NCBI GenBank assembly: GCA_000091205.1
Contig: AP006497.2
DNA: 64,000 nt
Strand: one strand, 5' to 3'
Source of the DNA: Cyanidioschyzon merolae
Lineage: Eukaryota
The stretch's first letter is position 1, and the number at the start of each line of letters is the position of its first letter. Below the pieces are notes generated by a model, which was not told where the DNA came from, made no database searches, and saw nothing but the letters and a program-made list of their open reading frames with translations. Made by a program: the position numbers and the translations under genes. This document shows positions 1 to 54,723 of the stretch, piece after piece.

Positions 1-7
1 GGAAAGT

Positions 8-1587: not shown

Positions 1588-1636
1588 ACACACACACACA
1601 CACACACACACAGACAGACACAGACAGACACACACG
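1588..1636. repeat. (CA)n/(GACA)n compound microsatellite; a shorter (CA)n lies at about 1426-1441
   Basis: acacacacacacacacacacagacagacacagacagacacacac seen directly. Confidence 0.9.
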
Positions 1637-26106: not shown

Positions 26107-26504
26107 GAAAACGGCGCGTTACCTGGCGTTCGGGCTAAGAGGTTCACGCGATCTGTCCACGGATGAATCAGGTTCAGAGCCTCAGCTTTGCTACACCGCT
26201 GAGAACCTGCCAATGGATCTCACCCTTTCTGCAAGAAAGCGCCTCGCAGAGCGGCGTCTAACCTCTTCCAAACAACACCCCGGGCTAACTGCGACGCTGC
26301 CCAGAGCACGAGTGCACAGCAGCGCGGCTTCGACGTCTGCGTTGTGCCGCTGCCGCCGAACTGGCAGCCGCGCCGACGTCCATCCACAGGCGCGATCGCG
26401 TAGGCGGACACGAGCGCCGTGCAGCATGCGTCTATCGGCTGTCAACTCAAGTGTGTTTCATCCGCGGGTGCGTTGCAACGAATGCTTTTTCGCAGGGTAT
26501 AACA

Positions 26505-27893
26505 GGGGATGGAATTCACGATACAATGTACCGTATCGATCGTAGATCAGTTGGATGTCGGATATGGATTCTTTACTGAACAGGGCAAAGAGGACTGCAT
26601 TCCGCCTTCGGGTCTCTCATAGGGTCGTACTCAAATGGCTGAGGAATATTGAAAGAAACGTGCAGATGTACTCCGTACCAAAAACTGGTATTCTCTAATA
26701 CTGCTTGCGGTCTATGGTAGAAAACGACCAGTTGATCGCCTTTTGCGGAAGGTAAAAGCGATAATAATAGACACCAGCGGCGTCTCTGTTTCTCAACAGG
26801 TGGTTCATGTGGACGTGAAATCTCTGGGATCCAATCGCAGAAAAAGTACGAGTTCACGCACAGCCATCTTCCACGGAAATCGCAACTACGGAATTCCTGG
26901 AACGTCAAGATCGGTATGAAGTAGACGAACGTCAATTTGTTTCTGCAGAAGATGTGAGTTCCTTCTGAGGAAACGATCGGAACGTCTATCGGTACGCGCG
27001 GAGCAGGGCACCAGTTTTGTGTACGATTGAATTCGAAGAGAACGGCGACATCATCTGCTCTAGGCGCAGTGGATTCATTTGGCAGCCTCAGCGTCGCTCC
27101 TCGAGAAGGCGCTTACCAAAGCACCCACTTGGTTGAACCATTGAAGATCTTCCCGAATGTCTGGCGAAGGCCTTCCATTGGACAACATACCCTTTCACCA
27201 TTCCACATGCGTTCGAGCTTTTCTTCGATTCTATCGGGGCAGAGCTGCTTTTCATTCCTCCATACCCTCAGAGATTCATCCCCATGAAACAAGTGTTTGC
27301 CATCGTGAAGCGTAATGATCCCTCCACTGCACGAATCCATGAATCGTTCTGCTCACGGTGACTCACAGGGACATATTTCGCCGTCCTTCCGCAAATCTAT
27401 CTCGCTCCTGCAAGGTCCTCAGCTAGGGACATAAAGAAGTGCTTTCATTTTGAAGAAAAAATGTTCAAGGCATGAGCTGAGTTGTAACCTTCAGCAGGTC
27501 GAGCTCGAAACAAGGCAGCCGAGCGCTTCTGCGATAGAAAAGTACGGAAAGCTGATAGACCACCAAATGGTAATGAGGGCACGGCCTCGAGGACTCCTTG
27601 CGCTGGTAAGTTCCACTAGCGGTAGAGCATGCAAGGAGGTCGCGAACCGAGACTGCAACGTCGCCACCAAGATCAGATGATATGCGGTGCCAAAGACGAG
27701 ACTCCCGGAGCTGACGCGATCCAACTTTCTGGGGCAGCCTCTCAGGCTCGAAGGGTGTTCGGATAAAAAATGAAACCTTTAGCAGGAAGCCGGTCAAAAA
27801 ATGCTGAAAGGCCTCTGCCGATGGATATCCATTTCCCCTACAGGGCCGTCGGACATTTTGTTTCACTGACGACGTTTGTATACGCGCAGGTTT
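26505..27893 (+). mobile_element. Non-autonomous (internally deleted) derivative of the Fanzor/TnpB-family element: roughly 0.85-kb left-end region joined to a degenerate C-terminal/RE segment; no intact ORF
   Basis: 26505-27390 aligns (same orientation) with 47352-48240 of the full copy. 27450-27680 translates to RARPRGLLALVSSTSGRACKEVANRDCNVATKIR, a decayed version of KVRGLLAFVSTTNDGKKRMEFVNRDFNAAINIRR. The 3' 200 nt align with the right end of copies at 50400-50613, ending ...gtttgtatacgcgcaggtt. Confidence 0.75.
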
Positions 27894-29176
27894 TCAGACA
27901 TTCGAGGTATACTTGTTTGTGTACGTGTTCATGTATGTGTTTGGTTGTACGCGTGCTTATGTGCAGCGCATCCGAGACCTCCAGAAGAAACGTGATGATC
28001 TGGATGCGAATACTAGGGACGCGTGACGGCGTTGTCTGTAACGTGCTCCAGTTGTCCGGAAAGCAGTAGAGTGTTCGGGGCAGTAGTTTTCCAGTGCTCG
28101 AGTTAGTATTCGTGTCTGGTTGGCGACATCGCAATCTGGTTGTATCCATGATGGCAGCGCCGCTTCGAACTGGCACGGCCTGCAGCTACCCGAGCGTACG
28201 TGCATATCTCATGGTGCTGGTAATTTTGATTTCGCAGAAGTTTTCGGCGACAAGCGTATAAATGCGTGTAATCTACACGGAGACGTCAGACGTTCGCGGC
28301 TGGTGCGGCGAATGATGGCGCTAGTGTGCGACGCTGCTTTCAAACGATGCCCAGTAACGTTGGATGCACCCGTCTGTAAACATGACCAGGGAATCGATCG
28401 TGTCTTGCAATCGAGACACTACACAGTGCGGAAGGTCGACGGCGCCGCAGAGCGCACCTCACGTGTACGCCTCCAAGCGAGACTGCACTGGATGTATTGA
28501 TGAACGGAACAGGGGTGCGATTCCCTGGTCTAGTGCCCAGCACCGTTCCCTATGACCGCAATCTGCACATGTTCAGATTGGTGATACGGAAGAGTTGCTG
28601 CGCACGCTGCGGAAAAAGGAGACCGTTGCGGTATTGCAGCATATCAGCGACGGACATAGTGCAGCACGCGTTTTTCTCGCTGTACAGCTGGTGCCAGGCA
28701 CGCGCTTTGGTAGCAGAGATGCATATGCTTGGCTTCGTGTCTGGACCGTATTCGGCAAATACTGAATGATGATGTAGAATGGCAGATTGTGATCTTGCGC
28801 CCTTCAGAGGAAACGAGCCGCAAACTCGAGTTTTTTTCCAGCAGCGAAGTTTATAGTGCTGGCTCGTTGAATGCAAGTCCACGTGCACTCGTGTCACGCT
28901 CGCTCCAGCGCATGGCTTCATGGCGGAAATCACATGACGTCTCACAGATATGCAGCGTACGATACGTTTCGATGAGCGCTCGGATGCGCTGCAGCGACGA
29001 ATGGCGTCGAGTCTCTGCTCTAGTAGAGCTGTCGCTCAGGGCGTTCAGCACACGCAACCTAGAACAGAGGCGGCTACTTGGTCTGGAGCGGTGCCTTTGA
29101 GCTGCCCAAGAGTGGCTCACACGAAGCCGCGGGCGGCATTTCATTCGACTGCAACGCCGCTAATGGTGCATAGTGC

Positions 29177-33686: not shown

Positions 33687-34480
33687 TTATTAGAACCCCA
33701 CCAGAAGAAACGCATTTTCCCACGGAAGCGGCAGCGAACGCCGTTCAACAGTCGAAAGTCGCCAGCAGTGTACAGTAGTTGCGAATGACCTGCCCTAGAC
33801 GAGACACGTCCGAATGACGTGCAGACGCCTCCCAGTATTTTTGGACCGGCCACCGACTACTGGTTCCATTTTTTTCTCATATAATCTAACCTTGAGATGT
33901 TGCCCTGCAAAAATTTCTCTTGTCATCTCTGGAGGCCTCTTGTCCATCACCGCACGTCTCCTGATATTGATAGTGGCATTAAAGTCTCGATTCACAAACT
34001 CCATGCGTTTCCTGCCATTGGTAGTTGTATTCATTAGTGCGAGTAGTCCGCGAATTTTCGCCTTAGTTTCCATTTGCACTTCCGCCAGCGCTTTGTACTT
34101 TTTTACACCCTCAAGGCTCGGCTGACACTGCTCCATCTTGACCTTCTGGAGCGTACACCACAGCTCGTGGCGTATGTTGGATGTTCGGAACTCATATATC
34201 GGTATTGTGACGAAACATCGTGCGCATTCCTTGTACGCTCATTGCGAGTTGCTGTAAACCGGAAACGAAATTCTCCTCGACAAGCCATAAAAGTGGTGTT
34301 GTGGCTTTCCGCCAGACACGGTGGCTGTTTTTGCCGTGTCCATGGTCCCGCAGGCGTGTCCCGGAGTGCGCTGACTCCATAAAAGCCGCGAGTTCGCGCT
34401 GCTGCCCTGGCATCGGGGTGCTGGCGGCTCCACAGCACAGATACCTCATGATGTGCGGGCGAAGCATGCTGCTTCAGCAC
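33687..34480 (-). mobile_element. 5'-truncated copy of the Fanzor/TnpB-family element (RuvC-II, Zn-finger region, RuvC-III and right end retained)
   Basis: Minus-strand translation IYEFRTSNIRHELWCTLQKV...KIRGLLALMNTTTNGRKRMEFVNRDFNATINIRRRAVMDKRPPEMTRE...YEKKMEPVVGGRSKNTGRRLHV; right end aligns with other copies and stops at about 33687, 40 nt upstream of the DnaJ ATG (33646). Confidence 0.8.
33795..34480 (-). pseudogene. C-terminal fragment of the TnpB/Fanzor-like nuclease gene (broken frames upstream of RuvC-II)
   Basis: ORFs 33795..34136 and 34192..34467 are in different frames but collinear with the C-terminal third of copies at 40.5-42.9 kb and 48.3-50.5 kb. Confidence 0.75.
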
Positions 34481-34779: not shown

Positions 34780-35672
34780 GCTAGGCGAGAGCGATCCGTT
34801 TGCGAATCATTTCGGAATGCGAATTCGATGTTCATGAGTGTCTTCCCGTAGTAATGCCTCTTTACTTCAGGTTCGAGGCGCGCCTGTTCGAGTTGGTTTA
34901 GCGCTTGCGTTCGAGCTTTTTGTCGATTCCATCGGGAAGCAGACCTGCTTTTTATTCTTCCTTGCACTCCGTGATTCAAGCCCATCACAGACGTGTTTTC
35001 TATCGTGAAACGTAATGATCGCTGCACTGGGCGAATCGCTGAAGCGTTCTGCACAATCACGTCGGAGCATATATCGTCGTTTTTCAGCAAGTCTTTCTCC
35101 CTCCGGGCAGGTCGTCGACTACGGGCATTCAGAAGTACGTGCATTTGTCGAAATAGAAAATCCATGCGAAAAGTATGGACATGAAAGTTAGGGATCCCGG
35201 AGGGTCGTCATTGCCAGGCGCCGGAAAAATGGATATATTGCTCTCCTCGTCGACCAGTGAGCGAAGAAGAGCAAGCGAAGATGATGACGAAGAAGAAGAG
35301 AATAGATAGGCGAGAAAAGATGGATGCCCGACGAGACGCTGGCGATTCTTTATTAGCACTGACGGCGCGAGTTCTAGCAATCCTGGCAATCGTGCGTTCA
35401 ACCGTCGACGATGCTCGCATGTAGCTCGTGAACCGAGACTTCACTGTCACCATCAATATCAGACGATGCGCGGTGCAGGAAACGATACCCGAGGAGCTAT
35501 GACGATCCAACTTCGTAGGGCATGCGCTCAGGCTCGACGCGTGCCTGGATACACTGAAGCTGCCAGCAGGTGGCTGGTCAGAAAAAATGGGAGGCTTCTG
35601 CACGCGGGCACCAGTTTAACCTCCATGGGCGCGAAATGCCTATCGTTTTACTGACTACAGACGTTCATTCTC
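34780..35672 (+). mobile_element. 5'-truncated non-autonomous derivative of the same family (3' part of left-end region + degenerate RuvC-III/RE segment), head-to-head with the fragment at 33687-34480
   Basis: 34860-35400 aligns with 48040-48520 (gcgttcgagctttttgtcgattccatcggg..., gtgttttctatcgtgaaacgtaatgatcgc..., gacgagacgctggcga). 35420-35500 translates to LVNRDFTVTINIRRCAVQETIPEEL; right end aligns with other copies to about 35672. Confidence 0.7.
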
Positions 35673-39554: not shown

Positions 39555-40546
39555 TTAGTGCGTTTGCTGGATCTCCCGTTGAATCTCAGCAAGCGCCAGG
39601 CGCACGTCCCGCTCTGTTACCACCCTGTTTTCTCGTGCACACTCTTGGAAGAGGCTGTACAACCGCCTTTTGGCGGCGCCCCAGGCATATGCGTACTCCA
39701 GCTCCAGCACCCGCTTGCCCTGAATCGAAGGCGGAAACGGAGACATTTCCACGTCGACGGCACCATCCGCAGCCTGTTCCTCATCAAAAAGCCATTCCAG
39801 ATGCGCAGCGTTTCGTTGTGAGCTGCAGGCGTCACATGGACAGACTACCGCCTCCAGTTCCTCCACAGTCACAAATATCGGAGCCATTTGCTCCGACTGC
39901 GTCGACGTGTCGCTGTCAAGTACCGCTTGCGCAATGCAAAGCGGTTTCGACACGCTGCCCGCTGCCTTGGCAGCGGGCACCCATAGCGCCAAGGGGCTGC
40001 AGCTCCGCCGGCACGCAGTGCACACAAGCAGCCCGTCCGTGGAGCCCGTCGTCGCGTCCAGGCCACCGAGGCACTTGACGTGGAACCAGTCCTCACAACC
40101 AATACACTGGTGCATGGTGTCGTCTTTCTCGCCTTGATACTCGGCGTCACATACACAGAACCTGTTTCGAGCGTTGTGATGCTCTCGCAGCCACCACACC
40201 TGAGAGGTCGGCAACGGCGCAGCGGCAACGTCGCTTAGCGCACAGTGCGGAGGCGCACACTGGCATACGAGTCCGTGCTTGTTTCCCAGCGCAAACGTGT
40301 CGTGGTCTGCGTGGCAGGCATCCGCACACGCCTGGCATACGATGGACGGTAAACTGGGGCCCTCGGGCAGCGCTGCCCGCGTCGTGCACGTCCGACAGAC
40401 ACACACTGCTATTGCACGTTCTGCTTGAGAGCGCTCGCGAGCACACTGCCAGTTGTGCTCTGGACACGCAGCACTGACTAGGTCCTCCAAGGTCACCACA
40501 TCCTCTGAGTCTTCGACTGAACCGAGAGCGTGCTCACTAGACCCCA
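39555..40546 (-). CDS. UBR7-like zinc-finger protein (N-terminal Cys/His-rich zf-UBR-like cluster + PHD finger)
   Basis: CVCDAEYQGEKDDTMHQCIGCEDWFHVKCLG...CTAC (C4HC3 PHD); upstream cluster CVCRTCT...CQACADACHADH...CQC; first ATG at about 40546 (the ORF-track start at 40574 is a TTG). Confidence 0.5.
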
Positions 40547-40574
40547 TGCTTCGGGCGCCGTGGCAAAAGTGCAA

Positions 40575-43090
40575 ACCCCTGGAAACAAACGTCTTTCAAA
40601 AGAAAAACGATGCAGCCTGCGGTATACAGAAATGGCGCGCAGCGCGCCCGAGTCAGAACGTCTCCAGCTGACGTGCAGTCGCCTCCCCGTCTTTTTGGAC
40701 CGGCAACCTACTACTGATTCCAACTTTTTTTCATATAATTCCACTTTGGGAGGTTTTCCAACAACGTTCTCTCTTGTCAACTCTGGAGGTCTTTTCTCGA
40801 GCACCGCACATCTCCTTATATTGATGGCGGCGTTAAAGTCTCGGTTCGCAAACTCCATACGTTTCTTGCCATCATTGGTTGTACTTACTGATGCAAGCAA
40901 TCCTCGAACTTTCGCTCTCCTTTCCATTTGCTCTTCCGTCAGCGCTCCGTACTTTTTCGTATCCTCAGGGCTCCGCTAGCACTTTTCCATCTCCACCCTC
41001 TGAAGTGTACACCCCAGTTCATGGTGTGTATACGATGTTCGAAACTCATCCATTGGTATCGTAACGAAACGCCTCGCGCACTCCTTGTACGTTCTTGTCG
41101 TTGGAGCTGGAGTAGTCCCTTTTTGGGTCTTCCAGCGCCCTGCTCCGTACCCTGCTACGAGCCTCTGACTTTTATCCTCCTTCAGGGCACTCAACTGATT
41201 GAAAAAACTCTCGAACGCACGCTGCTTACCACACTATAGATTCATTCGCAAACGAGCCCACCGGGGCTTGGTATACTCCTCCCACAATGCATTCCAATGA
41301 GCAACGCGAACTTCCATGAATTTCCGAAAAGCTTTAAAGTCCGCTCCTCGGCTCGTCACCTCGCTCACAGCTTCCAGGTGCTCGTTCATTCCTGCATTCC
41401 ATTTCTCGATTTTCTTCCTCGTATTCATGATTCCCGATTCTCGATGGTATCTCGCTCTCGAGAACCTCAAAAGACGCATATCTTTCTGATGCAAGGTACC
41501 GTCAGTACCATCTTCCCCACGCTTCGGTGCTGCGATGGTTATGATACTTGTGTTTCCAGCGTCCGCGCCAACGACAAAGTCGTTCTCGTGCATCTTCTGT
41601 GTCGCAGGACCCGCCTTCTTCTCATCTTCATGGTTCTCCGAGGGCGGAACGGGCCGATCCACACTCAACCGCCGATAGTGTATGCACCTGGCTACTCCAT
41701 CGGTTTCGATCATCCCAGTGAATACCTTTTGTCTGCTTACTTTCAGACGTTTGAAATCGAAGATACTCTTCCGGGGCATCTCCCGGTTTTCGTCGGTGAA
41801 CTCCTCCCTGCGAACATCGAACTCCGGACAGATCTCCTTCAAGATGCCATGAAGGATTCTCGAGTCCATAGTCACAAAATGTGACTTGATATTGCAAATT
41901 GGAACCATGTTGAAGCGCTTCCCCATTAGGGCCGACTTCCGCCTCTCCCACTCTTTATTTGTCTCCTCACTCAGCTTCCTCTCTGCCTGGCGTTCGAGTT
42001 CTCGGTCCAGAACCACAGAATAGCGCAGGACGAGGCGATAGTATCTTTCCTTAACTTTTTTTCAACTCTGATATCTTTTCTGTTGGATTCGCCAGCTCCA
42101 AGACTGCACGGTGCTCTTGTATTACGGCACGGATGACGGAGTCCTCATTCATGCTCTGGTTTGACGCCTTCTTGTCGACGAATTCGATCTCATCTTCATG
42201 CTTACGATCGTTCGTGGTGCCATTGAGGTCCGCCTATACTCCATTGCGAGAGATGCGCGGGTAGCGTGCAAACACGGCACGTATCATGAAACGTTCGAGG
42301 TTCATTGTCAAATGGTTCTTCAGATTCGTGAGGTATTTCATGGCCCCATAGTCCTAAATATCCCGGTCACCCCTATACCGAGTACCCTCGAAGCGGAATT
42401 CCGGGAAGGTTTCGTGGAGGACATGCACTGCTCATTTTCCCTCCGCGCTTTCGCTGTACCAAGCATCAGGTGACGAATAAACGTCGTGTCGAAGAATTCT
42501 TCCGGAATCTCGACTGTTTCCATGTGCGTCACGTCGCGATACATCTCCTTCACCAAATGCATCAGTCCTATAGAGTCCATACGAACCCTCGTGAAGTACG
42601 AATCAACATAATTTCTGATGGCCTCTCGCAGATTTTGCTTGTGCGGATCCTGAATATGGCCTAGATGGCATGATTTCTTTACAATCTTGAAGTAGGGTCG
42701 TCTTTCGAGTTGCATTTGGCGCCGGGCCCCCCCTTGTTTTGCGTCATCGTCGTGTCTTGTTTCTCTTCGGTCGGTATTCTTTTTCGCTTTTTCCGCTAGC
42801 CGGCGACGCTGCCCCTCCAGGATCCTCCACTTCCTTTTCCATAACTTTCCTCTTTTATTTTTTTGTAACGCACTTTGAACGCTTCTGCTATAAACCGCGA
42901 AAAAAACACGAGAATACACTTGTTTGAGGTTTGAGACACAAATGAACGGAAAAACTGTACTTTGCTACAACTTTAACGCAAGTACAACTTTTATATTAGA
43001 GCAGCACGCTATTGATCAGGATCGCGTTTCCCTTCAGCTGCGGGATGCGCGTCGTGACTCGAAAACTAACAGATCTCCCTGGTGCGCAAA
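40575..43090 (-). mobile_element. Near full-length copy of the Fanzor/TnpB-family element (copy D), with a truncated left end
   Basis: Collinear on the minus strand with copy 47352-50613 from the N-terminal basic region (42919) to the right end (acccctggaaac at 40575-40586); about 75-80% nucleotide identity. Confidence 0.85.
40660..42919 (-). pseudogene. TnpB/Fanzor-like RuvC nuclease gene, inactivated (at least 3 frameshifts, 2 in-frame TAG stops)
   Basis: ORFs 42338..42919, 41234..42016, 40976..41194 and 40493..40927 form one collinear protein: N-terminal KRKWRILEGQRRRLAEKAKKN (basic), [17 protein letters not shown] (RuvC-I), IPMDEFRTSYTHHELGC (RuvC-II), NRDFNAAINIRRC (RuvC-III). TAG replaces Tyr at 41234-36 and Gln at 40976-78 relative to the other copy. 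Confidence 0.85.
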
Positions 43091-43574
43091 TCGATAGCGC
43101 TATGTAGAACAAAGAACAGAGACTCACGACTAGCGAGCAACGATACAGCAATTTCTCTCCCGTTCTACGATAAACGTTGAAAACGGGGAAAAGGTTCCCA
43201 TATTCTGAAGAGTCCTCCCTCTAGGCGAAAAGTCCCGCGAGCCGGACGAGTCTCCCGGACTCGTGCTTCGTGCTCCACCCAGTAGCGGGCGCTGTGGCGA
43301 GACCTGAGCAGTTCGTCCGCAACGCGGTTCATTCTGGGACTAGATGCGGGATGCTGTGTTTGGTCGTCGCCCTGATCGCAGTAGACTCCTAATATATCGG
43401 TTCGCGCTTTCGCAGGCAGTAGTTCTGTCTGTTTAGCCTACAGGCTCCCAGAATTATTCTGGACTCCAACGCTGTATCAGGTAAAGCGTTCCTCAATCCG
43501 TCGCCCTCAGTGGTATGGCAACGCTGTTCTATCTCCATGATGCATCCGTCCCAGTGGTATAGGCGCTAAGGCGG

Positions 43575-44200
43575 GTGCCCAAAGCAGGCACTCGGTCGCA
43601 CTACAGAACGCACAAAACGATCTGTACATCCGAAAGGAAGTATAAGGAACGGAGCATGGAGGTAGAGTGCATCATGATGGACACTTTTTCGATCAGCTAT
43701 ACCCATCCATCTCGCTATCTGGAATCCAAGTACAATGTAAACGTTTTGTCATTGGAGAGAAATCAGCGGCAACAGCAAATGCAGCGGATTTTGTTCCATG
43801 TGAAAACTTCTCACACAGGCGAGCGTGCCGCGACTCTGTGTGCTTGCTACCTGCGCGCGGTGAAACTTTCGTCGTTCCACGCTTTACGTCCGAGTTTCAT
43901 AACCCATACTTCTTCTCGGATGTACTGGCGTTTCAGACGTACTATCGGGCGCCGAGTGCCTGCCCGTGAACATCCGCCTCAATAGCGCTTGTAGCGCCGG
44001 TGCTGTCGTAGCACAGAAACAGAACGGCGTTGCCGTACCGCAGACGGCGTCTGCTCGAGGCATGCTTCACCTGACGTAGAACTGGGTCTCGTTGTCAGGT
44101 TGTGCTCGGACAGCCTGCGGATGCAAAACTTGCTTTCGCTGCACAACACATTGGAGAAACTTGGCTGTTACGATGAATCCTGGGAGCCGCCTCTCTCCTG
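43575..44200 (+). repeat. Dispersed repeat D (about 0.6 kb) lying 0.5 kb upstream of petC
   Basis: 43860-44200 aligns at roughly 80% with 54000-54340 (for example aatagcgcttgtagcgccggtgctgtcgtagcacag...gagaaacttggctgttacgatgaatcctggga); weaker similarity extends to 43660 / 53690. Confidence 0.75.
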
Positions 44201-44701
44201 CGTGATCGTACATGGAAAGCGTCGCCCTCGGTTGGCGACTCGGGTCTGTGCTTGGCACCCACCAGTGAGTAGGTACGCGTAACACTGGTCCCGTGTGCGC
44301 ATCTGGTTTGCTGGACCTTCCACCTAGAAGGTAGAGTATGAGTTCGCTGACCACTGGTGAGTGCTGGAGCTCAGTTACGGGACCATCAGTTGCTAGCACT
44401 ACACTCAAAGTAAGTGGCTGGCCTTCATTTACCACAGTGATTCCCAGATGTTAATGTCTCTCAAAGAGATAGCTGCGTTCTTTTTTTCCAGCACAGGCAC
44501 AGAAAGCTTAAGTGTGCTGGCGTCTCTGGCATCCCGATTCCGCTGCACCGAACGCCGCGATCCTTCGAAGCCCTGCATCGCGAGCACGCTGCCGCCCATC
44601 GTCGATGATCACGAAACGATTTTTCCGTTCGTGTTGCATGAACGTTTGCGTTCTTACTTGATTGCAACTCGCAGTTTCATTGTTGTGTATAACGCTGGAT
44701 A

Positions 44702-45424
44702 ATGTTCGTGCTTACAACAAATAGCCTTACGTTTAGAACGGTGCCTCGGTGTTATCCTGGTACGGTCGAACGTCAGCATACAACGCTGGGCAGGAAGCGT
44801 GTGGCACTGCGCATGACGTATGCGCTGCCGAGTACAGTTGATAACGCGCGTGGAGGGAGCGGAAGCGGTGGCGACGGTGGCGGCTCCTCGGGCTCCGATG
44901 ACGACTACATACCAGATATGGGGAAGCGCACGCTGCTGAGCCTCATTCTCTTGGGTTCAGTTGGACTCCCAGCAAGCATCATGCTGAGCACATACGCAAG
45001 CTACTTCATGCCGCCGTCGAAGAACAAGAGTTCAGGCGGCGTGATTGCCAAGGACGCCCTCGGGACGCCTATCAAGAAGGAGGAGTATCTGAAGACGCAT
45101 CCCCCCGGCTCTCGTGATCTTGTGCAAGGCCTGAACGGGGAGCCCACGTATCTTGTTGTGAACGACGCCGGCGAGCTCGAAACCTACGCACTGAATGCTG
45201 TTTGCACGCACCTCGGCTGCGTGGTGCCTTGGTACGCAGCACAGAACAAGTTCATTTGCCCTTGCCATGGCTCGCAGTACGATCGTACAGGGAAGGTGGT
45301 GCGCGGTCCAGCTCCGCTTCCGCTCGCTCTGGCACATACCAAAGTGGATGATGACGGGTTCGTACAGATCAAACCCTGGAAGGAGACCGACTTTCGAACT
45401 GGTGAGAAGCCCTGGTGGAAGTGA
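44702..45424 (+). CDS. petC: Cytochrome b6-f complex Rieske iron-sulfur subunit, plastid-targeted precursor
   Basis: [10 protein letters not shown] and CPCHGSQYD Rieske [2Fe-2S] boxes; [18 protein letters not shown] membrane anchor; GEKPWW C-terminus; Ser/Thr/Arg-rich roughly 55-aa presequence followed by a Gly/Ser linker. Confidence 0.9.
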
Positions 45425-46410
45425 TGTTCTGTAAAATACCTAGTGTGTTGGAGGGCGCGGTCGAACAGACCTCGAGTGGTAAACGACATGCTTTTAGCTT
45501 GACTTGGTCGTAGTGCAATGCGCGATCATACGGCCTGTGGGCCAGCGGAGACGGCCTCGTAACGAGACGTTTTCGGGGTTCCCGTTTCTGCTGCGCACGT
45601 TCGACGTGTCTGTTCATGACCAGACTGTGATGGATGGACCCGAGGAGCAGCGCTAAAGACGCGCCCTTTCCGAATACATGTTGAAACGCGGTGCGAAACA
45701 GTCTCACGAAGGGCACGCACGAAGCGGAAACCCGGCAGTGTCTCCAGGTCACGCTCCACTGCATTGAACGTAGCGCCTTGGATGCACCGGTGGATATCGG
45801 ATTCGAGTACTACACGAGACGCAAAACGACGGAATGGAGAGGCGTCCTTGTTCCCACGACCAACTCTTGGCCAGGTACACCTACATGGCGCGCTTCCATA
45901 AACAGACAGCCCCACGACAGGTTCATCTCAATCACTGCCTGGAGAATATCATCAGACCAGTTGCTGGCCTGATGCAGACGAAGCGTGAACGGACGCATAT
46001 CGGTATCATGCACTGAATGCACAGAGACAAGTCCGTTGTCGACGGCAGCGCTGCAGGCATATTTGCACATGTGCACTTTATCGGGGGCGCGTCTTTGCTA
46101 GCTTGCTTGCTTGCTACTGGATGCTCGTTACCGCTTGTGGCGCCTTGCGCTCCAAAAGAGGTCTTGGAATAACAAAGTTCCGGATACCGCAGAACGCGCT
46201 GTTTGTAGCGAACGCAGCACGTCGCCTGCACCAGGCTGCCCCAGACTCGAGTGCCGACCAGCGAGCAGGCGGCCGCGGGTAACCTCGACGACAACAGCTC
46301 TGATTTGCGAAGACTCCCCAAAAAGCCAACAAAGTCCAAAGGTGCTTTCAACGTGGAAATCATCCCAGTCGGCCGCACAGGTTGCGGACGATTACCACCC
46401 AGAGCGAGGT

Positions 46411-46668
46411 TTAGCTGGTGTCCGGCGTTTGGCCCGTCACCGCCGGGTTCGGAAGTCGCTCTTCACGTCGTGCCTGGCGTATTTCGGCCAGCCAAAGGTC
46501 ACGACAGCGTCGATAGCACTCTTTCTTTTCGCGGCAGGTATCGTGTGCCCCAGGCTGGCGCTTGGCTTCCCCGACGCAGCGTAGCGCCTCCTCCCTGAGC
46601 CTAGCACAGGGGTCCGCCGGCGCTGCCGGACTCACCACGCTCGTCGAAGACGATCGCGCAGCGCTCAT
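46411..46668 (-). CDS. Small twin-Cx9C (CHCH-domain) protein, probably mitochondrial intermembrane space
   Basis: CARLREEALRC ... CREKKECYRRC = two Cx9C motifs; about 85 aa from the Met MSAARSSS. Confidence 0.4.
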   Translation of the reverse strand: MSAARSSSTSVVSPAAPADPCARLREEALRCVGEAKRQPGAHDTCREKKECYRRCRDLWLAEIRQARREERLPNPAVTGQTPDTS

Positions 46669-47351
46669 GGCAAAAACGCAACTCGTGAACGTCCCCCGGC
46701 TGCTGGGTTTTCCTCTCGCAACAAGCTCGACTCGAAAGGCAGCGAGATGTCTACCGAAACATTCCAAGCGTTTTACGGATCAGTGCGCCCTCAGCAGCGC
46801 CGTGCGGAAAAGCGCTCTGAACGATTGGATGGGATCCAGATGCCTATGCTGCAGGGTATTTCCTGTGAATGCAGAGCACTCGTTTCCGGTTTCTATGTTG
46901 CCGTCGCATGCACAGGTGTAAGCGGACAGTGAATTGACCTCTTGCGCTGCACTCGTGAAATGTCGAGCACGAATTCATCCATGTCAAACTGAAATGGTAT
47001 TTGCCGCAAGCTTCCCATGAAGAGGCATTTGCTGGTCGCATTTGGACTTTGGAAGCGATGCTGAAGACAAGTTCATCGCCGCGAACTCGCGTTGGAGCGG
47101 GATGCTTTGGCATTTCGCGACTGCAAAGCAACGTTCAGTGAGTGCTGGTGAGTGCCAGCACGCACATGCCAGCACCATGCCCTGAACAGACCCAGAAAAC
47201 GAATCGACGCGAATGTTTAGCTGCTTTTTCACCAGATGTGTCATATTGGCATCTATCGGATGCGTGAACGCTACCATCAAAGAGGCCCGAGGTTTCCGTT
47301 CTTGTAGTCTTTGTACTAAATTCTGTTTCACTTCCGCTGCGATGTCTAGAA

Positions 47352-50300
47352 GGAGATCGAAATCACAATGCAATGCATAGTGTAGATCGTAGATGATTTG
47401 CATGTAGCATATACATTCATTTCTGAACAGTGCAAGGAAGACTGTATTCCTCGTTTAGGACAGTCATACCACCGTACTCAGATGGTTGGCAAACACTGTA
47501 AGAAAAATGTAGATGCACTCCGTGCCAGAGATCGATATTCATTGAGGTCGCTTGCAGTCGATCTTAGAAAACGATCCGTTGATCACCATTTTCGGAAAGC
47601 AACAGCGACGATAATAGCCGCCACAGGCGTCACCGTTTCTCAACAGCTTATTCTTATGATCCCGAAAACATTGGGATACAATCTCAAAAAAAGTCATCGT
47701 TCAAGCAAAGGCATCTTCCATCCAAATCGCAACGACAGAGTCCCTGGAACGTCACGATCGATAGGAACCACTGGATCGTCAGTTTGTTTGTTCAGTTGAT
47801 GAAAATTGCTTCAGAAGGCACGCTCGGAGCGTCAATGGGTATTCGAGGTGAAGGGCGCCCGTTGTACGTTCGATCGAGCTCGAAGAGAACGACGAAATCA
47901 TCATCTATTATAGCTTTAGAAGATTTATTTGGCGGCCTCAGTTTCACTTGTAGAAAAGACACATGCAACAGCACCAACCAATTTGTCCAAGCATTGAAGA
48001 CTTTTACCCGACGTCTGGCGACGTCCTTCTATTGGGCAACGTGGCATATCACCATATCGCTTGCGTTCGAGCTTTTTGCCGATTCTATCGGGGTAGGGGT
48101 GATTTTTGTTCGTCTGTGCGCTCCGTGGTTCAAGCGCATTGTAGGAGTGTTTTCTATCGTGAAACGTGATGATCGCTCCCCCGGGCGAAACGCTGAGCGT
48201 TCATCACTCGGTAACACATCGGGGTACATGCCATTTATCTTGCGAAAGCCACGCTCCCTCCGAGAAAGCCCTCATCTAAGGGCAAAAAACGTGCGGTCGT
48301 TTTGACGAAATAAAACTCCAAAACAAAGCTATGCACGTGCAAGTCGGGGATCCTGAAGGGCCCTTGCCGCCGGCTGGCAGAAAAAAACGAAAAATTCTGC
48401 CAATGGAATAGGAACAAAACAGAACGAAGAAGCAAAAGGGCGAGGCCCGACGTCAAAAGCTGCGCGAAAGACGACTATGCGACGAGACGCTGGCGAAAGC
48501 CTGTCTTGGTAACCATATCAAGGATTCGGACAAGCAAACATGCAACAAGTCATCCGAGACCGTGTCGAGTCGCACTCCATGAGTATTGTAAAGGATTCTT
48601 CAGGACTAATGCCTTTGACGAAGGAGATGAATCGCGGCGTGACGGGCATCAAAACAGTCGAGGTTCCGGGAGAATTTTTCAACACCATCGTTATGCATCA
48701 CCTGATGCTTGGCACAGGGGAAACGTCGAGGAGAAAGGAGCGAATGCATGCCCTCCACAAAATTACCCCGAATACCCTTTTCATCGGTAATCGATACCGG
48801 CGTGACTCGGATATTTACACGTACGGGGCGAAAAAGTACCTCACGAACCTAAAGAACCATATGAACATGAACCTCACACGTTTCATGATACGTTCCGTCT
48901 TCGCGCTGGACCCGTGCCTCTTTCGCAAAGCGATAGACGGGTTACCATCAATGGCATCTCGAACGATAGTAAGAACGAACAGGAGATCGAACTCGTCGAC
49001 AAGAAGACCTCGCACAGGAGCATGAATGAGGCTTCTGTCATCCGCGCGGCTATTCAAGAGCACCGTGCACTCTTGGGGCTCGTTGACCCAGCAGAACAGG
49101 TATCAGAGATGAAAAAGATGGAAAAAGAAAGATGTTACCCACACTTCCTGCGCTATTTCGTGTATTTGGACCAAGAACTCGAACGCAAGGCTGGGATGGA
49201 GCAGGGTGTGCGGAAAAATGCAGAGTCGGTAGAACGGAAGGCTGCGCTTGCGGGTACGCGCTTCGAAGTCGTTCGGTTATGCGAGATCAAGTCGCACTTT
49301 GTGACAATCGACTCCAGAGTCCTTTACGGAATACTGAAGGAGATAAGTTCGGGGCTCGATGTACGCAACAAGGAGTTCACCGGTGAAAATCGGGACACGT
49401 ACTGGACGCATGTCTTCGACGTCAAGCGTCTCAATACGAGCCAGAAAAGGTATTCAGAGGTGTCATCGAAACTAAATGAGTAGCCATGTGTGCACACGAT
49501 CGGCGCTTGAAGGCAGATCGTCATATCGTGCCTTCGGCTTCGCCCGTGACGAAGCATGAAGATGTGAAGCAGGCGGATCCCGCGACGCAGGAGGTTCAGG
49601 ATACTGGCTTTGGCGGCGGCGCGGACCCTGGGATGACGAATATCATAACGATCGCAGCACCGAAGCGTGCGGGAGATGGTGCTGATGGTAACCTGCGTCA
49701 GATAGAAATGCGTCTCTTGAGGTTCTCGAGACCGAGATACTACCGAGAATCCGGTTCAATGAATGCGAGGAAGAAAATCGAGACATGGAATGCAGGAGTC
49801 AAGGATCAGCTGGAAGCTATGAGCGAGGTGACGATCCGACATGCGGACTTTCAAGATCTGCCAGAGTTCATGGACACTCAAGCTGCTCATGTCGAGGAGC
49901 TGCGGAAAGAGTATCGAAAACAAAGGTGCGCTCGTCAGCGTTTGAATCTGTACAGAGAGAACCAGCGTGCATACGCCAACGATTTCAATCCGTTGAGCGC
50001 CTTGAAGGAGGACGAGAGTCAGAGGCTGGTAGAAGCGTATGGGGCAGCGCGCTAGCTGGCCCGAAAAGGGACTACGCCAGCTCCAACGACAAGAACACTC
50101 AAAGAGCGTACACGGCGTTTTGTTACGATACCAATAGGTGAGTTCCGAACATCGTATACACACCATGAAGTGAGGTGCGTACTTCAGAGGGTCGAGATGG
50201 AAACGTGCCAGCGGAGCCAAGAGGATATAAAAAAGTACAGACCGCTGACGGAGGAGCAAATGGGAAGGAGGGCAAAAGTTCGCGGACTCCTTGCATTCGT

Positions 50301-50613
50301 GAGTACAACCAATGATGGCAAGAAACGCATGGAGTTTGTGAACCGAGACTTTAACGCCGCAATCAACATCAGAAGATGTGCGCAGCTGGAGAAAAGACCT
50401 CCAGAGTTGACACGAGAGAGAATTTTGTCAGACGACCTCTCAAGGTCGAAGTATACGAGAAAAAGTTGAAACCAGTAGCAGGTGGCCGGTCGAGAAAGTC
50501 GGGAAGGCGTCTGTACGTCGGCGTATAGGCATCCGATCTGCGGCGCGCCGCTCGCCACTCCTGTACCCCTAGCGACAGCGTTTTTCTTGTGAAAGGCGTT
50601 TGTTTCCAGGGGT
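47352..50613 (+). mobile_element. Full-length copy of the Fanzor/TnpB-family element (copy E): roughly 1-kb non-coding left-end region, nuclease gene, roughly 90-nt right end
   Basis: Left-end region shared with 26505-27390 and 34860-35400; ORF segments 48331-50525; right end gtttttcttgtgaaaggcgtttgtttccaggggt conserved in all five copies, ending at about 50613. Confidence 0.85.
48331..50525 (+). pseudogene. TnpB/Fanzor-like RuvC nuclease gene, inactivated (at least 3 frameshifts, 1 in-frame TAG)
   Basis: ORFs 48540..49025, 48914..49483, 49486..50055 and 50170..50469 lie in frames 0/2/1/1. Motifs: PAGRKKRKI (NLS-like), GGGADPGMTNIITIAAP (RuvC-I), IPIGEFRTSYTHHEVRC (RuvC-II), NRDFNAAINIRRC (RuvC-III). 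TAG at 50053-55 where copy D has Trp. Confidence 0.85.
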
Positions 50614-50652
50614 GCCCAGGGGGTCGCTTTAGCCTAGCTTTTGGTCTCGAAA

Positions 50653-52743
50653 ATGCCTCAATGGGACAAGCGCGCCAGACAGCGAAGAAGCAACCAGTCT
50701 CGTTGGCGTCGGGAACCATGGGAGACGCAGGAAGTCGCTTCACCGTTAAGTTGGCTCTGCTTGCCTGCGCGTGTGCTAGCGTGCTTTGGCTCACCTCCGA
50801 GCGAAGAGCTCGCTGAGTCGGCGCAGCCGCCCGACGACATTGTGCCTTGGGAGGACTCCGAAACCGCCGACTCGTCTTCTCAAAGCAGTTTTGGTGGCTC
50901 TGATGAAGGTGCGCGCCAAGAGCTTGCGTGCCGTACGCGAGCGGAGAAAGTGGACGGCAACGGCGCTGGCACCGAGAACGACCAGGATGAGCAACTATCC
51001 GTCGAGCTGGACGCGCTTCGTCGACGTCGCTCCTTCTCGGCCACGAGCTTCCACTTGCCAGCTGTATCCCGTCCAACAGCGGCAGGTAGCATTGTCGACA
51101 TACCGTCAGAGCGTCCACAGACCGCGCAACGCAGAGAACGTCAACGTATCGTGGGCAAGTTGGCGCTCGTTGGGCTCGGTACTCAGCTTCTGCTGCTCAG
51201 CTTGAAGTTGTACAGATTTGAATCGCTCTCACCAGCGTATCTCGTTTTTTCCGTCGCGTTTTTCGTGTTCAGCGGAGGACTTGCTTTCCTGAGTCTCCAC
51301 TACTTTAAAATGGGGCGCCTGCCACCTTTTCTGGATGTGGCTGCAAAACGGCGAGAAGCGTCGCACAACCGTTCGTGTGGGACAAGCCCGGCCCGCTCCA
51401 ACACCGACTCGACGATGCGTACGCTGAGCGGAGCGGGTTCGGCGTTCAGTACTCCAACGGCGGACAGATCGCCATGCACGCCCAAGTCTCGAATTGCCTC
51501 GCGCTCTCGAGAGTACGCTCAAAGCTTCCAAGAAAAAGGCGATGCGCAGGTCGTCAGAACGTCATTTGACTCGCGATCAAACCGACGAATCTTCTCAGTG
51601 CTGGGTGTCGAGAGCTCGCAGTCATTTTGCGAGCAACAGGGGTGCAGTACAAGAATGCCGAGCAAGAGTCGACCGGCAGCGATACGAATCGACGTTACCA
51701 GCGAGCGTACCGCGGCAACATCAGCGAGCGATGACGCAGTTAGTGCGGACAACATCGCCGTGTCCGTCAGAGAGCCGTCCACGCTCTCTGATGCCGATGC
51801 TGATCATACAGAGCATGGTATCGAGAAGCGTCGCGGCACCTTCCGCGAAAAGCCCGGCCAGCGAGGCACGCCCGGTGTTCGCGCTGCTGTTGCCGAAACC
51901 CAGCGACGACATGTGCAGCGGGCGACAGAAACTCGTAGCGCCGGCGCACCGGCCTTGCCGGTACCAGACGCTTCGGACCAGATGAGAGCTGGCGCATCCT
52001 TAGAGCAACGGCGTCGATCCCGCGAGGCATCCTCTCTGTCAGACGACGGAACGCCTCCCGAAGTGCAAATTGAGTCACTGCGTATTGTAGAGAGTTGGGA
52101 GAAGATGCGTATAACAGCAAAGAAGGAAATCTTAGCGGAAGATTTTTGCGAGGGAATGCTCAGTCTATTGAGCGTCATCGATGCATTGGGTCCCGCTTTT
52201 CGAATCATCAAAATCGACATTCGAAATCATGTGAATGGGATCCACCGCAGCTGCACGAAACACAACTGCCGCACCCTGCAGCGCCTCATTGATGCAGAGT
52301 CGAATCGGGTATCACGCTGGTTGAATCCATCGGGCATTGGCGATGGTACGGAACATGTGCTCTGGATGAAACGGGCCATGCAGTTTGTGTACATGCTGTT
52401 GTACATGTTTTTGGATGGCATCGATTTAGACCGGTGTGTATACCATGCATATCGCATGACGCTGCGAGCCTGTCACCCGTACATTGTCCGGAAAGTAGCG
52501 GAGAACCTGCACCGCTTCGTCCCTACCAGAGCTGGCTTTTTGCGCAGAATCCACGCAGATGAGGACTTTGTTTTAACGCAAATGCGGCGATTCTTGAAGG
52601 CAATCGAACCGCGTCTTGATATTATCGTTGAGGTATTCAACGCAAACCAGCTGGAACCGCACTGTCGATTCTCATGCGCAGAATTGCGCCGGCTGGCACA
52701 GCACTGTGCAAAATATGATATCGACGAGGATATGACGCAGTGA
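50653..52743 (+). CDS. Membrane-anchored protein with a C-terminal glycolipid-transfer-protein (GLTP) domain
   Basis: C-terminal 200 aa: LSVIDALGPAFRIIKIDIRNHV...HVLWMKRAMQFVYMLL...AYRMTLRACHPYIVRKV parallels the GLTP fold (LWLKRGLKF...AYxxTLxxxHxWxVR). A transmembrane stretch LALVGLGTQLLLLSL...FFVFSGGLAFLSLHYF precedes it. The ORF-track start 50641 is TTG; first ATG is at about 50653. Confidence 0.55.
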   Translation: MPQWDKRARQRRSNQSRWRREPWETQEVASPLSWLCLPARVLACFGSPPSEELAESAQPPDDIVPWEDSETADSSSQSSFGGSDEGARQELACRTRAEKVDGNGAGTENDQDEQLSVELDALRRRRSFSATSFHLPAVSRPTAAGSIVDIPSERPQTAQRRERQRIVGKLALVGLGTQLLLLSLKLYRFESLSPAYLVFSVAFFVFSGGLAFLSLHYFKMGRLPPFLDVAAKRREASHNRSCGTSPARSNTDSTMRTLSGAGSAFSTPTADRSPCTPKSRIASRSREYAQSFQEKGDAQVVRTSFDSRSNRRIFSVLGVESSQSFCEQQGCSTRMPSKSRPAAIRIDVTSERTAATSASDDAVSADNIAVSVREPSTLSDADADHTEHGIEKRRGTFREKPGQRGTPGVRAAVAETQRRHVQRATETRSAGAPALPVPDASDQMRAGASLEQRRRSREASSLSDDGTPPEVQIESLRIVESWEKMRITAKKEILAEDFCEGMLSLLSVIDALGPAFRIIKIDIRNHVNGIHRSCTKHNCRTLQRLIDAESNRVSRWLNPSGIGDGTEHVLWMKRAMQFVYMLLYMFLDGIDLDRCVYHAYRMTLRACHPYIVRKVAENLHRFVPTRAGFLRRIHADEDFVLTQMRRFLKAIEPRLDIIVEVFNANQLEPHCRFSCAELRRLAQHCAKYDIDEDMTQ

Positions 52744-53589: not shown

Positions 53590-54340
53590 CTAAACTGTGA
53601 AAGCGACAGCAAATGCGCCCACGCAGAGCCAGGTGTCGATCATCGGAGAATGTCCGAGCGACTGCGAGCGTGCCTGTTTGCATCGCTGCGCGCCTCCGCG
53701 CGTAACCGCTATGTTTTTCGTGGAATACGACGTCTGCGATGAACCTGAATATCTCGAGTACGTGATTGTTGTCGGCAACGAGAAAACAGGCGACAATTCC
53801 TTTTCAGATGGTTTGATGCTTCACGCCTGCCAGCACAGTCTCTCGATTCGAACATAGGATTCGACTCAACGACTTTTGGGCTACAGTGCTCACTCGACGG
53901 TAAGCTCGCCACGACATCCGATTCTTTTCATGGACAAAACGTTTCCATCGGCCAGCGTTCTCCGATTACGCGCATTTTTCTTTTCTTACTTTTTTTGTGT
54001 TTTTTTTTCAGTGCGCGGTGAGGTATCCACCAAATCCCCTACTTCCATGTTACATTACCTGCACTTCGTCTCGGATATTCTGGTCGTTTCATACGTCCTA
54101 TCGTGTGTGCCTAGTACCTGCCGAAAGCGACAGCAATAGCGCCTACAGCGCCAGTGCGGTCGCTGCACGGAGACAGAGCGGCGTTGCCGTAACACAAAGG
54201 GCGGCGGCTCGAGGCGTGGCTCACCCGACGTAGAATCGGGTCTCGTCGTCAGTTTGTGCTCGGAGAGTCTGCGGATGCAGGCTTGTCTTCGCAGCACGAC
54301 ACGCTGGAGAAACTTGGCTGTTAGGATATATCCTGGGAAC
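53590..54340 (+). repeat. Dispersed repeat D, second copy, about 0.4 kb upstream of the kinesin gene
   Basis: Aligns with 43575-44200 and (T-rich core) with 10990-11160. Confidence 0.75.
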
Positions 54341-54723
54341 ACGACATCCGATGCACCGCCGCAGTCGCTATACGCGCGCTCCGAGCGGCGTCGACATACC
54401 AAAGCAGGCGTCGGATCGACATAAAGATACAGGGGGCGACACCTAAATTTCCGGTGTAGTGGGATCGATGCATCCAACCAGAATCCCGGTAAGCACGAAT
54501 TGGAGCAGCAATTAGGGAAGCATTCCACGCTTCTCTCCGAAAACTACGCAACACTGGCATCCACAGAGGCCCTTCTGCACGAAGAGCAGATGCAACCTCA
54601 GGCATTTTCGATCCGGCACTGCAGCAGCAGCAGCAGCAGCCGATCGGCGGCAGCAGCGGCCGATCGCAGAATTTGAAATTGCCGTGCTTTTCCGGCTCGC
54701 TTGCCCCTTCACGGCTTGCCGCC

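Follow-up and report, generated by a model that had tools for sequence, protein, structure and literature searches.

Fanzor1 proteins are eukaryotic homologues of TnpB. They are RuvC-type endonucleases whose catalytic triad is rearranged and which bear a nuclear localisation signal at the N-terminus. Characterised Fanzor1 relatives are directed to the DNA they cut by a guide RNA (fRNA) encoded at the element's 3' end. In Fanzors, an inert residue occupies the place of the canonical RuvC-II glutamate, and the proteins have an alternative glutamate (Jiang et al. 2023, PMC10530073). The CMe-1A family of Cyanidioschyzon merolae was described by Bao & Jurka 2013 (Mobile DNA 4:12, PMC3627910; Repbase) and comprises about 150 copies with about 80% identity to a consensus of 3,169 bp. 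The CMe-1 protein consists of 734 amino acids and is encoded by one exon (PMC3627910, Additional file 1), and the first 635 bp of the consensus are common to the non-autonomous element TE-N2_CMe (PMC3627910). The same study described Mariner/Tc1 elements with a Fanzor1 gene, for example PUl-1 and PUl-2 of Pythium ultimum.

The window, i.e. the whole stretch of 64,000 nucleotides of C. merolae DNA analysed here, contains two ORFs that are identical to the C. merolae 10D proteins BAM81441.1 and BAM81439.1. It also contains an element, copy D, which is almost certainly a complete, non-functional copy of CMe-1A, a DNA transposon family of about 3.2 kb with a single-exon, 734-aa Fanzor1 gene. In blastn, positions 3-3169 of the published consensus (PMC3627910, Additional file 2) correspond to window positions 43752-40590 with 84.9% identity and 36 gap positions, and copy D is therefore full length (Table 1). 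It is found in the same genome as the published family, is collinear with it over the full length, including the ORF, and shows a typical divergence of about 80-85% identity to the consensus; it differs in being a dead copy. As the family is named and published, it is already known, and copy D is a real but ordinary member that adds one more annotated copy.

Beyond the ends of the published consensus, conservation among copies runs on for about 12 nt at the 5' side and 15 nt at the 3' side. The published consensus is thus missing about 12 nt at its 5' end (T-rich, TGATTTTTTTC) and about 15 nt at its 3' end, where a subfamily-specific tail follows. The 5' end of copy D is located at about 43754-43766; position 43090, given as its 5' limit in an earlier note on this DNA, is no boundary, and the collinearity with the second copy, E, ends at 42860. 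Copy D can be aligned through consensus positions 3-905, and related 5' fragments are present at 43885-44075 and 54038-54240.

Table 1. Coordinates of copies D and E, their lesions and the host gene next to copy D (window positions).
Feature	Position	Strand	Description or basis
Copy D	40575..43766	-	Full-length decayed CMe-1A (Fanzor1 transposon); blastn to consensus and conservation among copies
5' non-coding part of D	42843..43766	-	Corresponds to consensus 1-905
Fanzor1 (CMe-1) pseudogene of D	40649..42842	-	ATG 42842-42840 to ancestral stop site 40651-40649 (now TCG); codon projection
Span of the four frameshifts of D	42056..42793	-	-1 near 42793, +2 near 42737, -1 near 42430, +1 near 42056
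Premature TAG in D	42354..42356	-	Consensus and E Tyr; codon projection
Premature TAG in D	42234..42236	-	Consensus Trp, E Arg; codon projection
In-frame 12-nt deletion in D	41628..41652	-	Near 41640, relative to consensus and E
RuvC-I Asp codon (GADAG), D431	41561..41563	-	Intact in D; aligned to DPxxxD of SpuFz1/PpFz1
Premature TAG in D	41234..41236	-	Consensus and E Tyr; polymorphic, orthologue L048 TAC
Alternative RuvC Glu codon (MDEFRTS), E603	41045..41047	-	Intact in D; aligned to DEYKTS / DEFRTS of solved Fanzor1
Premature TAG in D	40976..40978	-	Consensus and E Gln; strain-specific, both orthologues CAG
RuvC-III Asp codon (NRDFNAAINI), D672	40838..40840	-	Intact in D; aligned to NRD of solved Fanzor1
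3'-terminal hairpin of D	40590..40609	-	CGTTTTTC TTTT GAAAGACG
15-nt 3' tail of D	40575..40589	-	TTTGTTTCCAGGGGT; past the published consensus end
Host PHD-finger ORF	39555..40547	-	Co-oriented with D; first ATG about 27 nt after the D 3' end
Copy E	47344..50613	+	Sister-subfamily element; DDE_3 transposase remnant and Fanzor1 pseudogene
Decayed Tc1/mariner-type (Pfam DDE_3) transposase gene of E	47344..48287	+	tblastn with L003 DDE_3 protein, E = 3e-7
Fanzor1 pseudogene of E	48331..50541	+	Codon projection
Frameshifts of E	near 48540, 48935, 49444, 50414, 50523	+	
Stops of E	48409-11, 49477-79, 50053-55	+	Lost stop codon 50539-41

Pfam scans of the ORF fragments of D and E, the composite protein, P0001 and the consensus returned no significant family, and the precomputed domain match is a weak one to DUF8286; the identification as Fanzor1 comes from the homologue search, the literature and a PDB profile search. 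A profile of ten family members matches nothing in the PDB but Fanzor1 structures, namely 9cf0 (Parasitella parasitica Fz1, PpFz1; E = 8.5e-13) and 8gkh (Spizellomyces punctatus, SpuFz1; E = 3.9e-9). The homology covers a REC-like region and the RuvC half, and the motifs TDGV, DPG, DEFRTS and NRD-NAA-N are shared. In the family alignment A1, D431, E603 and D672 are invariant; they align with motifs of SpuFz1 and PpFz1, and their codons are intact in both D and E. At the RuvC-II position, the sequence alignment places VVAYGAG of the family on VVMGDWS of SpuFz1, with no glutamate there. The family would resemble the two solved proteins in a putative replacement of the RuvC-II glutamate (AYGAG) combined with an alternative glutamate, and also in an N-terminal basic, NLS-like stretch; by inspection, such stretches are GKKRK and KKQKR in the consensus, KKRKR in D and GRKKRK in E.

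The C. merolae family is nevertheless a distant relative of these proteins, detected at the profile level only (E of 1e-9 to 1e-13), and its zinc-finger cysteines are degenerate. The C4 zinc finger ([TS][TS] to RD in the motif of Bao & Jurka 2013) is not recognisable in CMe-1 or D: the corresponding segment, TSYTHHELGCTLQRVEMEKC, contains two cysteines and two histidines without CxxC pairs, and alignment A1 has no invariant cysteine column. Pfam Cas12f1-like_TNB yields sub-threshold matches only, in distant relatives (E about 2e-3). CMe-1 was nevertheless classed as Fanzor1 by Bao & Jurka 2013 (PMC3627910). Judged by these likenesses, the intact element probably encoded a Fanzor1 protein, and RNA-guided cleavage is a predicted activity of the CMe-1 family.

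Copy D has its sense on the minus strand and copy E on the plus strand. Both are collinear from D 42860/E 48313 to D 40575/E 50613, over 2,280 aligned nucleotides with 75.5% identity and 11 short gaps, and the blastn match (1534 bits, E = 0) is far beyond chance. This corroborates the inverted repeat of about 2.4 kb at 75-80% identity described in the earlier note. D and E have 52 derived substitutions in common versus about 20-27 expected, and this excess fits inheritance within a subfamily. The proximity of the inverted copies, which lie only about 5.5 kb apart, and the presence of several related fragments in the window could point to a recent segmental duplication or an assembly artefact. 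Such an origin is, however, exceedingly improbable in view of 75.5% identity with 11 indels, of flanks that are unrelated past the element ends, of non-overlapping lesions in D and E, and of the D locus being found with the same flanks at 99% identity in independent metagenome assemblies. Both possibilities are already refuted, given how far the copies have diverged and that independent assemblies reproduce the locus; copies at 75.5% identity are not identical apart from sequencing-type errors. The proposal that D and E are old, vertically inherited insertions and no assembly duplicates is upheld by this divergence, by the different flanks and by the D orthologue in contigs L053 and L048.

Lesions were called by codon projection on the consensus ORF 906-3110, the published CMe-1 frame. 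Conceptually translated, copy D runs collinearly with CMe-1 as published, and each of the 734 codons finds its counterpart (dN = 0.105 to the consensus); the ORF is a pseudogene with four frameshifts and four TAG stops, accompanied by one in-frame 12-nt deletion and the loss of the ancestral stop codon. Copy E contains five frameshifts, three stops and one in-frame 3-nt insertion, and has likewise lost its ancestral stop codon. Copy D can no longer make a Fanzor1 protein. In the CMe-1 frame, D and E have no premature stop or indel in common, and the independent decay asserted earlier is thereby borne out.

The individual lesions listed in the earlier note were largely correct. The stops at 41234-36 and 40976-78 in D are present, where E reads TAC (Tyr) and CAG (Gln), as is the stop at 50053-55 in E, where D reads TGG (Trp). 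The list for D was incomplete, however, as the two TAGs nearer the 5' end and all four frameshifts were missing from it. For E, a 1-nt deletion exists at about 48535-48540, while the second indel lies at about 49444 and not at 49483, and a TGA stop is located at 49477-79. It had further been stated that every break in one copy is open in the other, which would allow an intact ancestral ORF to be reconstructed. A composite of D and E is indeed open across all 734 codons, but the ancestral stop codon was changed differently in the two copies (TCG at 40649-51 in D, TGC at 50539-41 in E), and the end of the ORF is therefore irrecoverable from D and E alone. The reconstructable ancestral ORF is already in print as the 734-aa CMe-1 consensus.

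A still working gene, in which the frameshifts represent introns or programmed frameshifts and the TAG codons are read through, would be in line with the three intact catalytic codons and with the fact that all four premature stops of D are TAG. This excess of TAG is not significant (P = 0.06), because TAG accounts for 50% of the single-substitution routes to a stop in the ORF, and it was rejected as a meaningful signal. The indels are differences of 1-2 nt from the consensus and E rather than introns, the family gene is single-exon (PMC3627910, Additional file 1), two of the TAGs differ from strain to strain in the manner of neutral changes, and most sister copies are broken at other places. 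A functional D gene is thus very unlikely, and D is best regarded as a pseudogene. Among 80 related loci, one ORF with the motifs of the RuvC half exceeds 600 aa (747 aa in contig L024, with an N-terminus that is apparently out of frame), and such a scarcity of long ORFs is in keeping with an old family whose roughly 150 copies are about 80% identical to the consensus (PMC3627910).

The dN/dS ratio between D and E is 0.48 (bootstrap 0.38-0.59), confirming the expectation of a value below 1; with a majority consensus, which is no true ancestor, as the reference, the ratios are 0.35 for D and 0.51 for E. All bootstrap intervals are below 1, and the nuclease half of D shows a ratio of 0.16. Values of 0.35-0.51 indicate that selection was acting during part of the divergence, prior to decay. 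The orthologues of D in another strain (contigs L053 and L048) have the same flanks and are 99.1-99.2% identical to D; they carry each of its four frameshifts and two of its four stops. The decay of D is therefore old, because its frameshifts are common to a 99%-identical strain, and it is still going on, because two TAGs are strain-specific or polymorphic. D and E both descend from active lineages of the CMe-1A family, which probably diverged partly under purifying selection, as the dN/dS values suggest, and each copy gained its own frameshifts and stops after insertion at a different locus. A phase of selection during the divergence of the family supports the old argument that Fanzor1 is functional for the element.

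The two copies differ in their 5' architecture, which was overlooked in the earlier note. In blastn, consensus 868-3169 corresponds to E 48288-50598 with 82.3% identity. Copy E is devoid of the CMe-1A 5' part and instead contains a decayed Tc1/mariner-type (DDE_3) transposase gene. The E ORF at 47784-48305 is 41% identical to an ORF in contig L074 (E = 2e-25), which in turn matches DDE_3 at 2.3e-5; the assignment of this pseudogene is made by transitive homology. The E-type 5' part is also joined to Fanzor1 at 26504-27817, at 34899-35204, in L068/L069 and in a second element in L074, and the junction occurs at at least five loci. For CMe-1A, the 2013 paper reported no transposase, whereas the E-type copies found here carry a DDE_3 remnant.

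This arrangement resembles the Mariner/Tc1 elements with Fanzor1 described by Bao & Jurka 2013, since E-type copies and the distant relatives L002-L005 have a DDE_3 gene immediately before Fanzor1, in the same orientation; the transposase and Fanzor1 genes of L002 and L003 are flanked together by a 30-nt imperfect inverted repeat. It differs in that the transposase of E is a pseudogene and that D is without any transposase part. No terminal inverted repeats or TA duplications were found at the boundaries of D, E, A, L068 and L074, and no target-site duplications in nine elements with both ends. A search of the window for an inverted copy of the 3' end at the 5' side returned only the 3' ends of D and E. 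No TnpA (Y1 or serine recombinase) of the kind that accompanies TnpB in IS200/IS605 or IS607-type elements was found either: the upstream ORF in E is of the DDE type, and the 5' 920 nt of D contain no ORF longer than 57 aa. Copy E belongs to a sister subfamily with a Tc1/mariner-type DDE transposase gene upstream of Fanzor1, and this transposase was likely the original means of mobility. These data suggest that the CMe-1 family may have begun as a Tc1/mariner-type (DDE_3) transposon with Fanzor1. The DDE_3 link, the corrected consensus ends and the phase of purifying selection constitute what is left to add to the published description of CMe-1A.

At the 3' end, a terminal hairpin is present in 24 of 24 non-redundant copies. 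Each copy has it in one of two registers, for which 82.8% and 71.9% of cells are paired, and some of the changes are compensatory. The last 60 or so non-coding nucleotides are conserved, and one of the hand-specified helices shows 91.7% of cells paired with one covarying pair. These helices lend modest support to a conserved RNA structure. Applied to the 3' ends of the 24 copies, RNAalifold yielded a consensus energy close to zero and no strong consensus, and Rfam returned no match at E <= 1 over 40000-51000. The 15-nt tail that follows the hairpin is identical in D, E and L017/L045 and carries one mismatch in L036/L049, while the flanks past the tail differ in every case. A flank-derived guide or target was considered for the tail and rejected as the simplest reading, since the tail occurs at element ends only and is common to independent insertions with different flanks, and since the excess of derived substitutions common to D and E fits inheritance within a subfamily; a single match with two mismatches away from element ends is at chance level. 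In comparison with the bacterial IS200/IS605 TnpB-omegaRNA systems, the family has a homologous RuvC nuclease and a conserved, putatively structured 3' region that extends to the right end. It differs in the missing TnpA, the eukaryotic host, the putative NLS of the protein and the short variable tail after the hairpin, which in C. merolae moves with the element and is not flank-derived.

A side observation, which has not been reported before, concerns the position of these elements relative to host genes. A long host ORF in the same orientation begins 1-115 nt after the 3' end of the element at 17 of the 27 independent loci, compared with 5.7% of background non-coding positions (P about 3e-15), with the ORF starts taken from the first ATG. 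The downstream genes at the 17 loci are all unrelated to one another, and on the 5' side the distances scatter widely (36-1500 nt). CMe-1-type elements may thus occupy a stereotyped position, in which the 3' end, where an outward-reading fRNA would be transcribed, is placed just before a host start codon. It is conceivable, though with the balance somewhat against it, that this reflects targeted integration into 5' UTRs or transcription start sites and/or transcription from the 3' end that drives host genes, with dead copies like D being kept as promoter or leader donors.

A related and slightly more tentative reading, compatible with D being a dead CMe-1A copy, is that D is kept or tolerated because its 3' end could now provide the PHD-finger gene that follows in the same orientation with a promoter or 5' UTR. 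It would agree with the same arrangement at E, 39 nt from a GLTP-domain gene (ATG 50653), and at fragment B, which ends at 33724, 8 nt from a zuotin-like gene (ATG 33715), with the enrichment before unrelated genes and the broad 5'-side distances, and with gaps of 1-8 nt, into which a 5' UTR of the host gene itself would not fit. The same pattern would, however, arise without exaptation if insertions favoured 5' UTRs and were then filtered by orientation, and the distances depend on starts inferred from the first ATG, not on annotation. If it holds throughout the genome, the pattern would be informative about site choice by transposons with a Fanzor gene, or about their survival at such sites, in a eukaryotic genome of great compactness. 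In the window, B, D and E are the copies with a locatable 3' terminus (hairpin and tail), and all three fit the pattern.

The inverted repeat is formed by copy D, a minus-strand Fanzor1 element at 40575-43766, and copy E, a plus-strand element at 47344-50613. A repeat search of the window joins 40575-42635 to 48536-50613 as an inverted-arm chain, blastn against the window aligns 48325-50613 with 42848-40575 (75.3% over 2,302 columns, E = 0), and in global alignment 1,722 of 2,280 aligned positions are identical (75.5%), with 11 short gaps. The repeat described in the earlier note is thus real, and its reading of D as a decayed paralog of E is supported; only the 5' boundary of D was misplaced, as 43090 ends neither the element nor the D/E homology, which extends to 42860 in D and 48313 in E. 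The common 3' end is sharp (40575 in D, 50613 in E).

CMe-1A was described in Cyanidioschyzon merolae as a family of about 150 copies, which match their 3,169-bp consensus at approximately 80% identity and whose one-exon gene encodes a 734-aa Fanzor1 protein. It has no TIRs, its TSDs were not determinable, its first 635 bp are shared with the non-autonomous TE-N2_CMe, and no transposase was listed (Bao & Jurka 2013, PMC3627910). Consensus positions 868-3169 correspond to 48288-50598 in E (82.3% identity). Because consensus positions 3-3169 align with 43752-40590 (84.9% identity), and the window derives from C. merolae 10D (exact matches of two window ORFs to the 10D proteins BAM81441.1 and BAM81439.1), D is a full-length copy of CMe-1A, located in the very genome from which this family was described. 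Its identity therefore holds nothing new, and only the proximity to host genes and the link to a DDE_3 transposase may be so.

The translation contains the TnpB/Fanzor-like motifs GADAGNT, DEFRTS and NRDFNAAINI; a Pfam scan of the translated D and E fragments matched no model. A homologue search with a composite D/E protein retrieved 61 relatives in public data, including full-length, uninterrupted proteins of 650-702 aa (e.g., P0042, P0044 and P0058). A profile of ten family members matched only two PDB entries, both Fanzor1, from Parasitella parasitica (9cf0, E 8.5e-13) and Spizellomyces punctatus (8gkh, E 3.9e-9), with which the motifs TDGV, DPG, DEFRTS and NRD align. D431, E603 and D672 are invariant across the family, and their codons are intact in both D and E. 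The segment aligned to the canonical RuvC-II position reads AYGAG and lacks a glutamate, as would be expected if the family had the rearranged catalytic site known from Fanzors (PMC10530073). A C4 zinc finger, part of the 2013 Fanzor motif, is not recognisable in the CMe-1 family.

Lesions were scored against the consensus ORF (positions 906-3110). D and E share no premature stop or indel, so their composite is open across all 734 codons, as the earlier note had anticipated. The three stops that it named have sense codons in the other copy (Table). Of the 1-nt indels it placed in E, the deletion at ~48535-48540 was recovered, while the second lies at ~49444 and not at 49483; a TGA stop occupies 49477-79. 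D has an orthologue, flanked by the same sequences, in the metagenome contigs L053 and L048 (99.1-99.2% identity), which carries all four frameshifts and two of the four stops of D; at 40976-78 both contigs read CAG, and at 41234-36 L048 reads TAC. The decay of D is old, because its frameshifts are shared between 99%-identical strains, and it has gone on since these strains diverged, because two of its four TAG stops differ between them. Among 80 related loci, only one has an ORF longer than 600 aa with the RuvC-half motifs.

The 752-aa relative P0001 (L001 6001-8259) contains an internal expansion of ~3 tandem repeats of ~25 aa (type KHEE.K.A.PATQEVQDNDF) that immediately precedes the RuvC-I motif; the 12-nt deletion in D falls in the matching region.

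Nei-Gojobori dN/dS values (bootstrap 95% intervals) are 0.35 (0.27-0.45) for consensus versus D, 0.51 (0.41-0.64) for consensus versus E and 0.48 (0.38-0.59) for D versus E, the last agreeing with the earlier expectation of a ratio below 1. Part of the divergence thus built up under purifying selection, which echoes the remark of Bao & Jurka on the long-lasting coding capacity of the family (PMC3627910). In the RuvC half (codons 421-734), consensus versus D gives 0.16, a value without bootstrap interval. D and E are probably members of one sublineage, because they share 52 derived substitutions (~20-27 expected by chance) and the same 15-nt tail.

Lesions of D and E and further family-related features
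Feature	Position	Strand	Remark
D frameshifts	-1 ~42793; +2 ~42737; -1 ~42430; +1 ~42056		vs consensus ORF
E frameshifts	-1 ~48540; +2 ~48935; -1 ~49444; +2 ~50414; +1 ~50523		vs consensus ORF
D in-frame indel	~41640		12-nt deletion vs consensus ORF
E in-frame indel	~49118		3-nt insertion vs consensus ORF
D premature stops	42354-56; 42234-36; 41234-36; 40976-78		all TAG; E has TAC (Tyr) at the third, CAG (Gln) at the fourth
E premature stops	48409-11; 49477-79; 50053-55		TAG; TGA; TAG (D has TGG, Trp, at the last)
Ancestral stop codon, D	40649-51		lost, TCG
Ancestral stop codon, E	50539-41		lost, TGC
DDE_3 transposase parts joined to Fanzor1	26497-27461; 34899-35204; L068 2023-3072; L074 7093-8107		
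Internal-deletion derivative	26497-27900	+	keeps DDE part and Fanzor 3' part
Internal-deletion derivative	34899-35489	+	keeps DDE part and Fanzor 3' part
Fragment B	33724-34240	-	3' fragment
TE-N2_CMe-like 5' fragments	43885-44185; 53920-54338; 11052-11149	+	consensus ~84-282 at 77-79%

Comparison of 24-27 non-redundant copies extends the conserved sequence beyond the published consensus by ~12 nt at the 5' end (TGATTTTTTTC) and by 15 nt at the 3' end (40575-40589 in D and 50599-50613 in E, TTTGTTTCCAGGGGT). These 15-nt tails differ between subfamilies yet are common to independent insertions (also in L017, L036 and L011). At the 3' terminus, a hairpin (CGTTTTTC-TTTT-GAAAGGCG, with TTCGA-type variants in some copies) precedes GTT and the subfamily-specific tail. 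The hairpin is held in one of two registers with some compensatory changes, and a second helix at this end has one GC/CG covarying pair. This terminus resembles the terminal part of a guide-RNA scaffold and may be one. Neither TIRs nor TSDs were detected at the examined boundaries of the C. merolae copies.

At 27 non-redundant loci with CMe-1-type elements (D, E and B of the window; loci L009-L088), 22 have a co-oriented ORF as the closest long ORF downstream, and in 17 a long host ORF in the same orientation begins (first ATG) 1-115 nt past the element 3' end, against 5.7% of background non-coding positions/orientations (binomial P ~3e-15). The insertions are independent, because the downstream proteins are all mutually unrelated. 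On the 5' side, distances scatter widely (36-1500 nt). This pattern, of which no earlier report was found in the searchable literature, may mean that insertion is directed to 5' UTRs, that transcription leaves the element at its 3' end and enters host genes, or both. In the window, the 3' end of D (40575) is followed after ~27 nt by the first ATG of a PHD-finger ORF in the same orientation, that of E (50613) after 39 nt by a GLTP-domain ORF and that of fragment B (33724) after 8 nt by a zuotin-like DnaJ ORF.

CMe-1A positions 1-867 are absent from E, which carries in place of this 5' part a decayed DDE_3 (Tc1/mariner-type) transposase (47344-48287). Further instances of this DDE-Fanzor junction occur at 26504-27817, at 34899-35204, in L068/L069 and in L074. 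E-type copies form a recurrent subfamily that combines a decayed DDE_3 transposase gene with an adjoining Fanzor1 gene. In distant relatives of the P0042 type, an intact DDE_3 gene lies upstream of Fanzor1, and a 30-nt imperfect inverted repeat brackets both. A further DDE_3-like remnant at 3036-3652 (minus strand; tblastn E ~4e-16 with an L003 DDE_3 protein) adjoins no Fanzor sequence.

Three shorter fragments (26497-27900, 33724-34240 and 34899-35489) sit between host genes and, within 25 kb, form with D and E a local cluster of five family copies. One TE-N2_CMe-like fragment stands head-to-head with D, ~120 nt from its 5' end, and another lies upstream of a co-oriented kinesin ORF (54673-58596).
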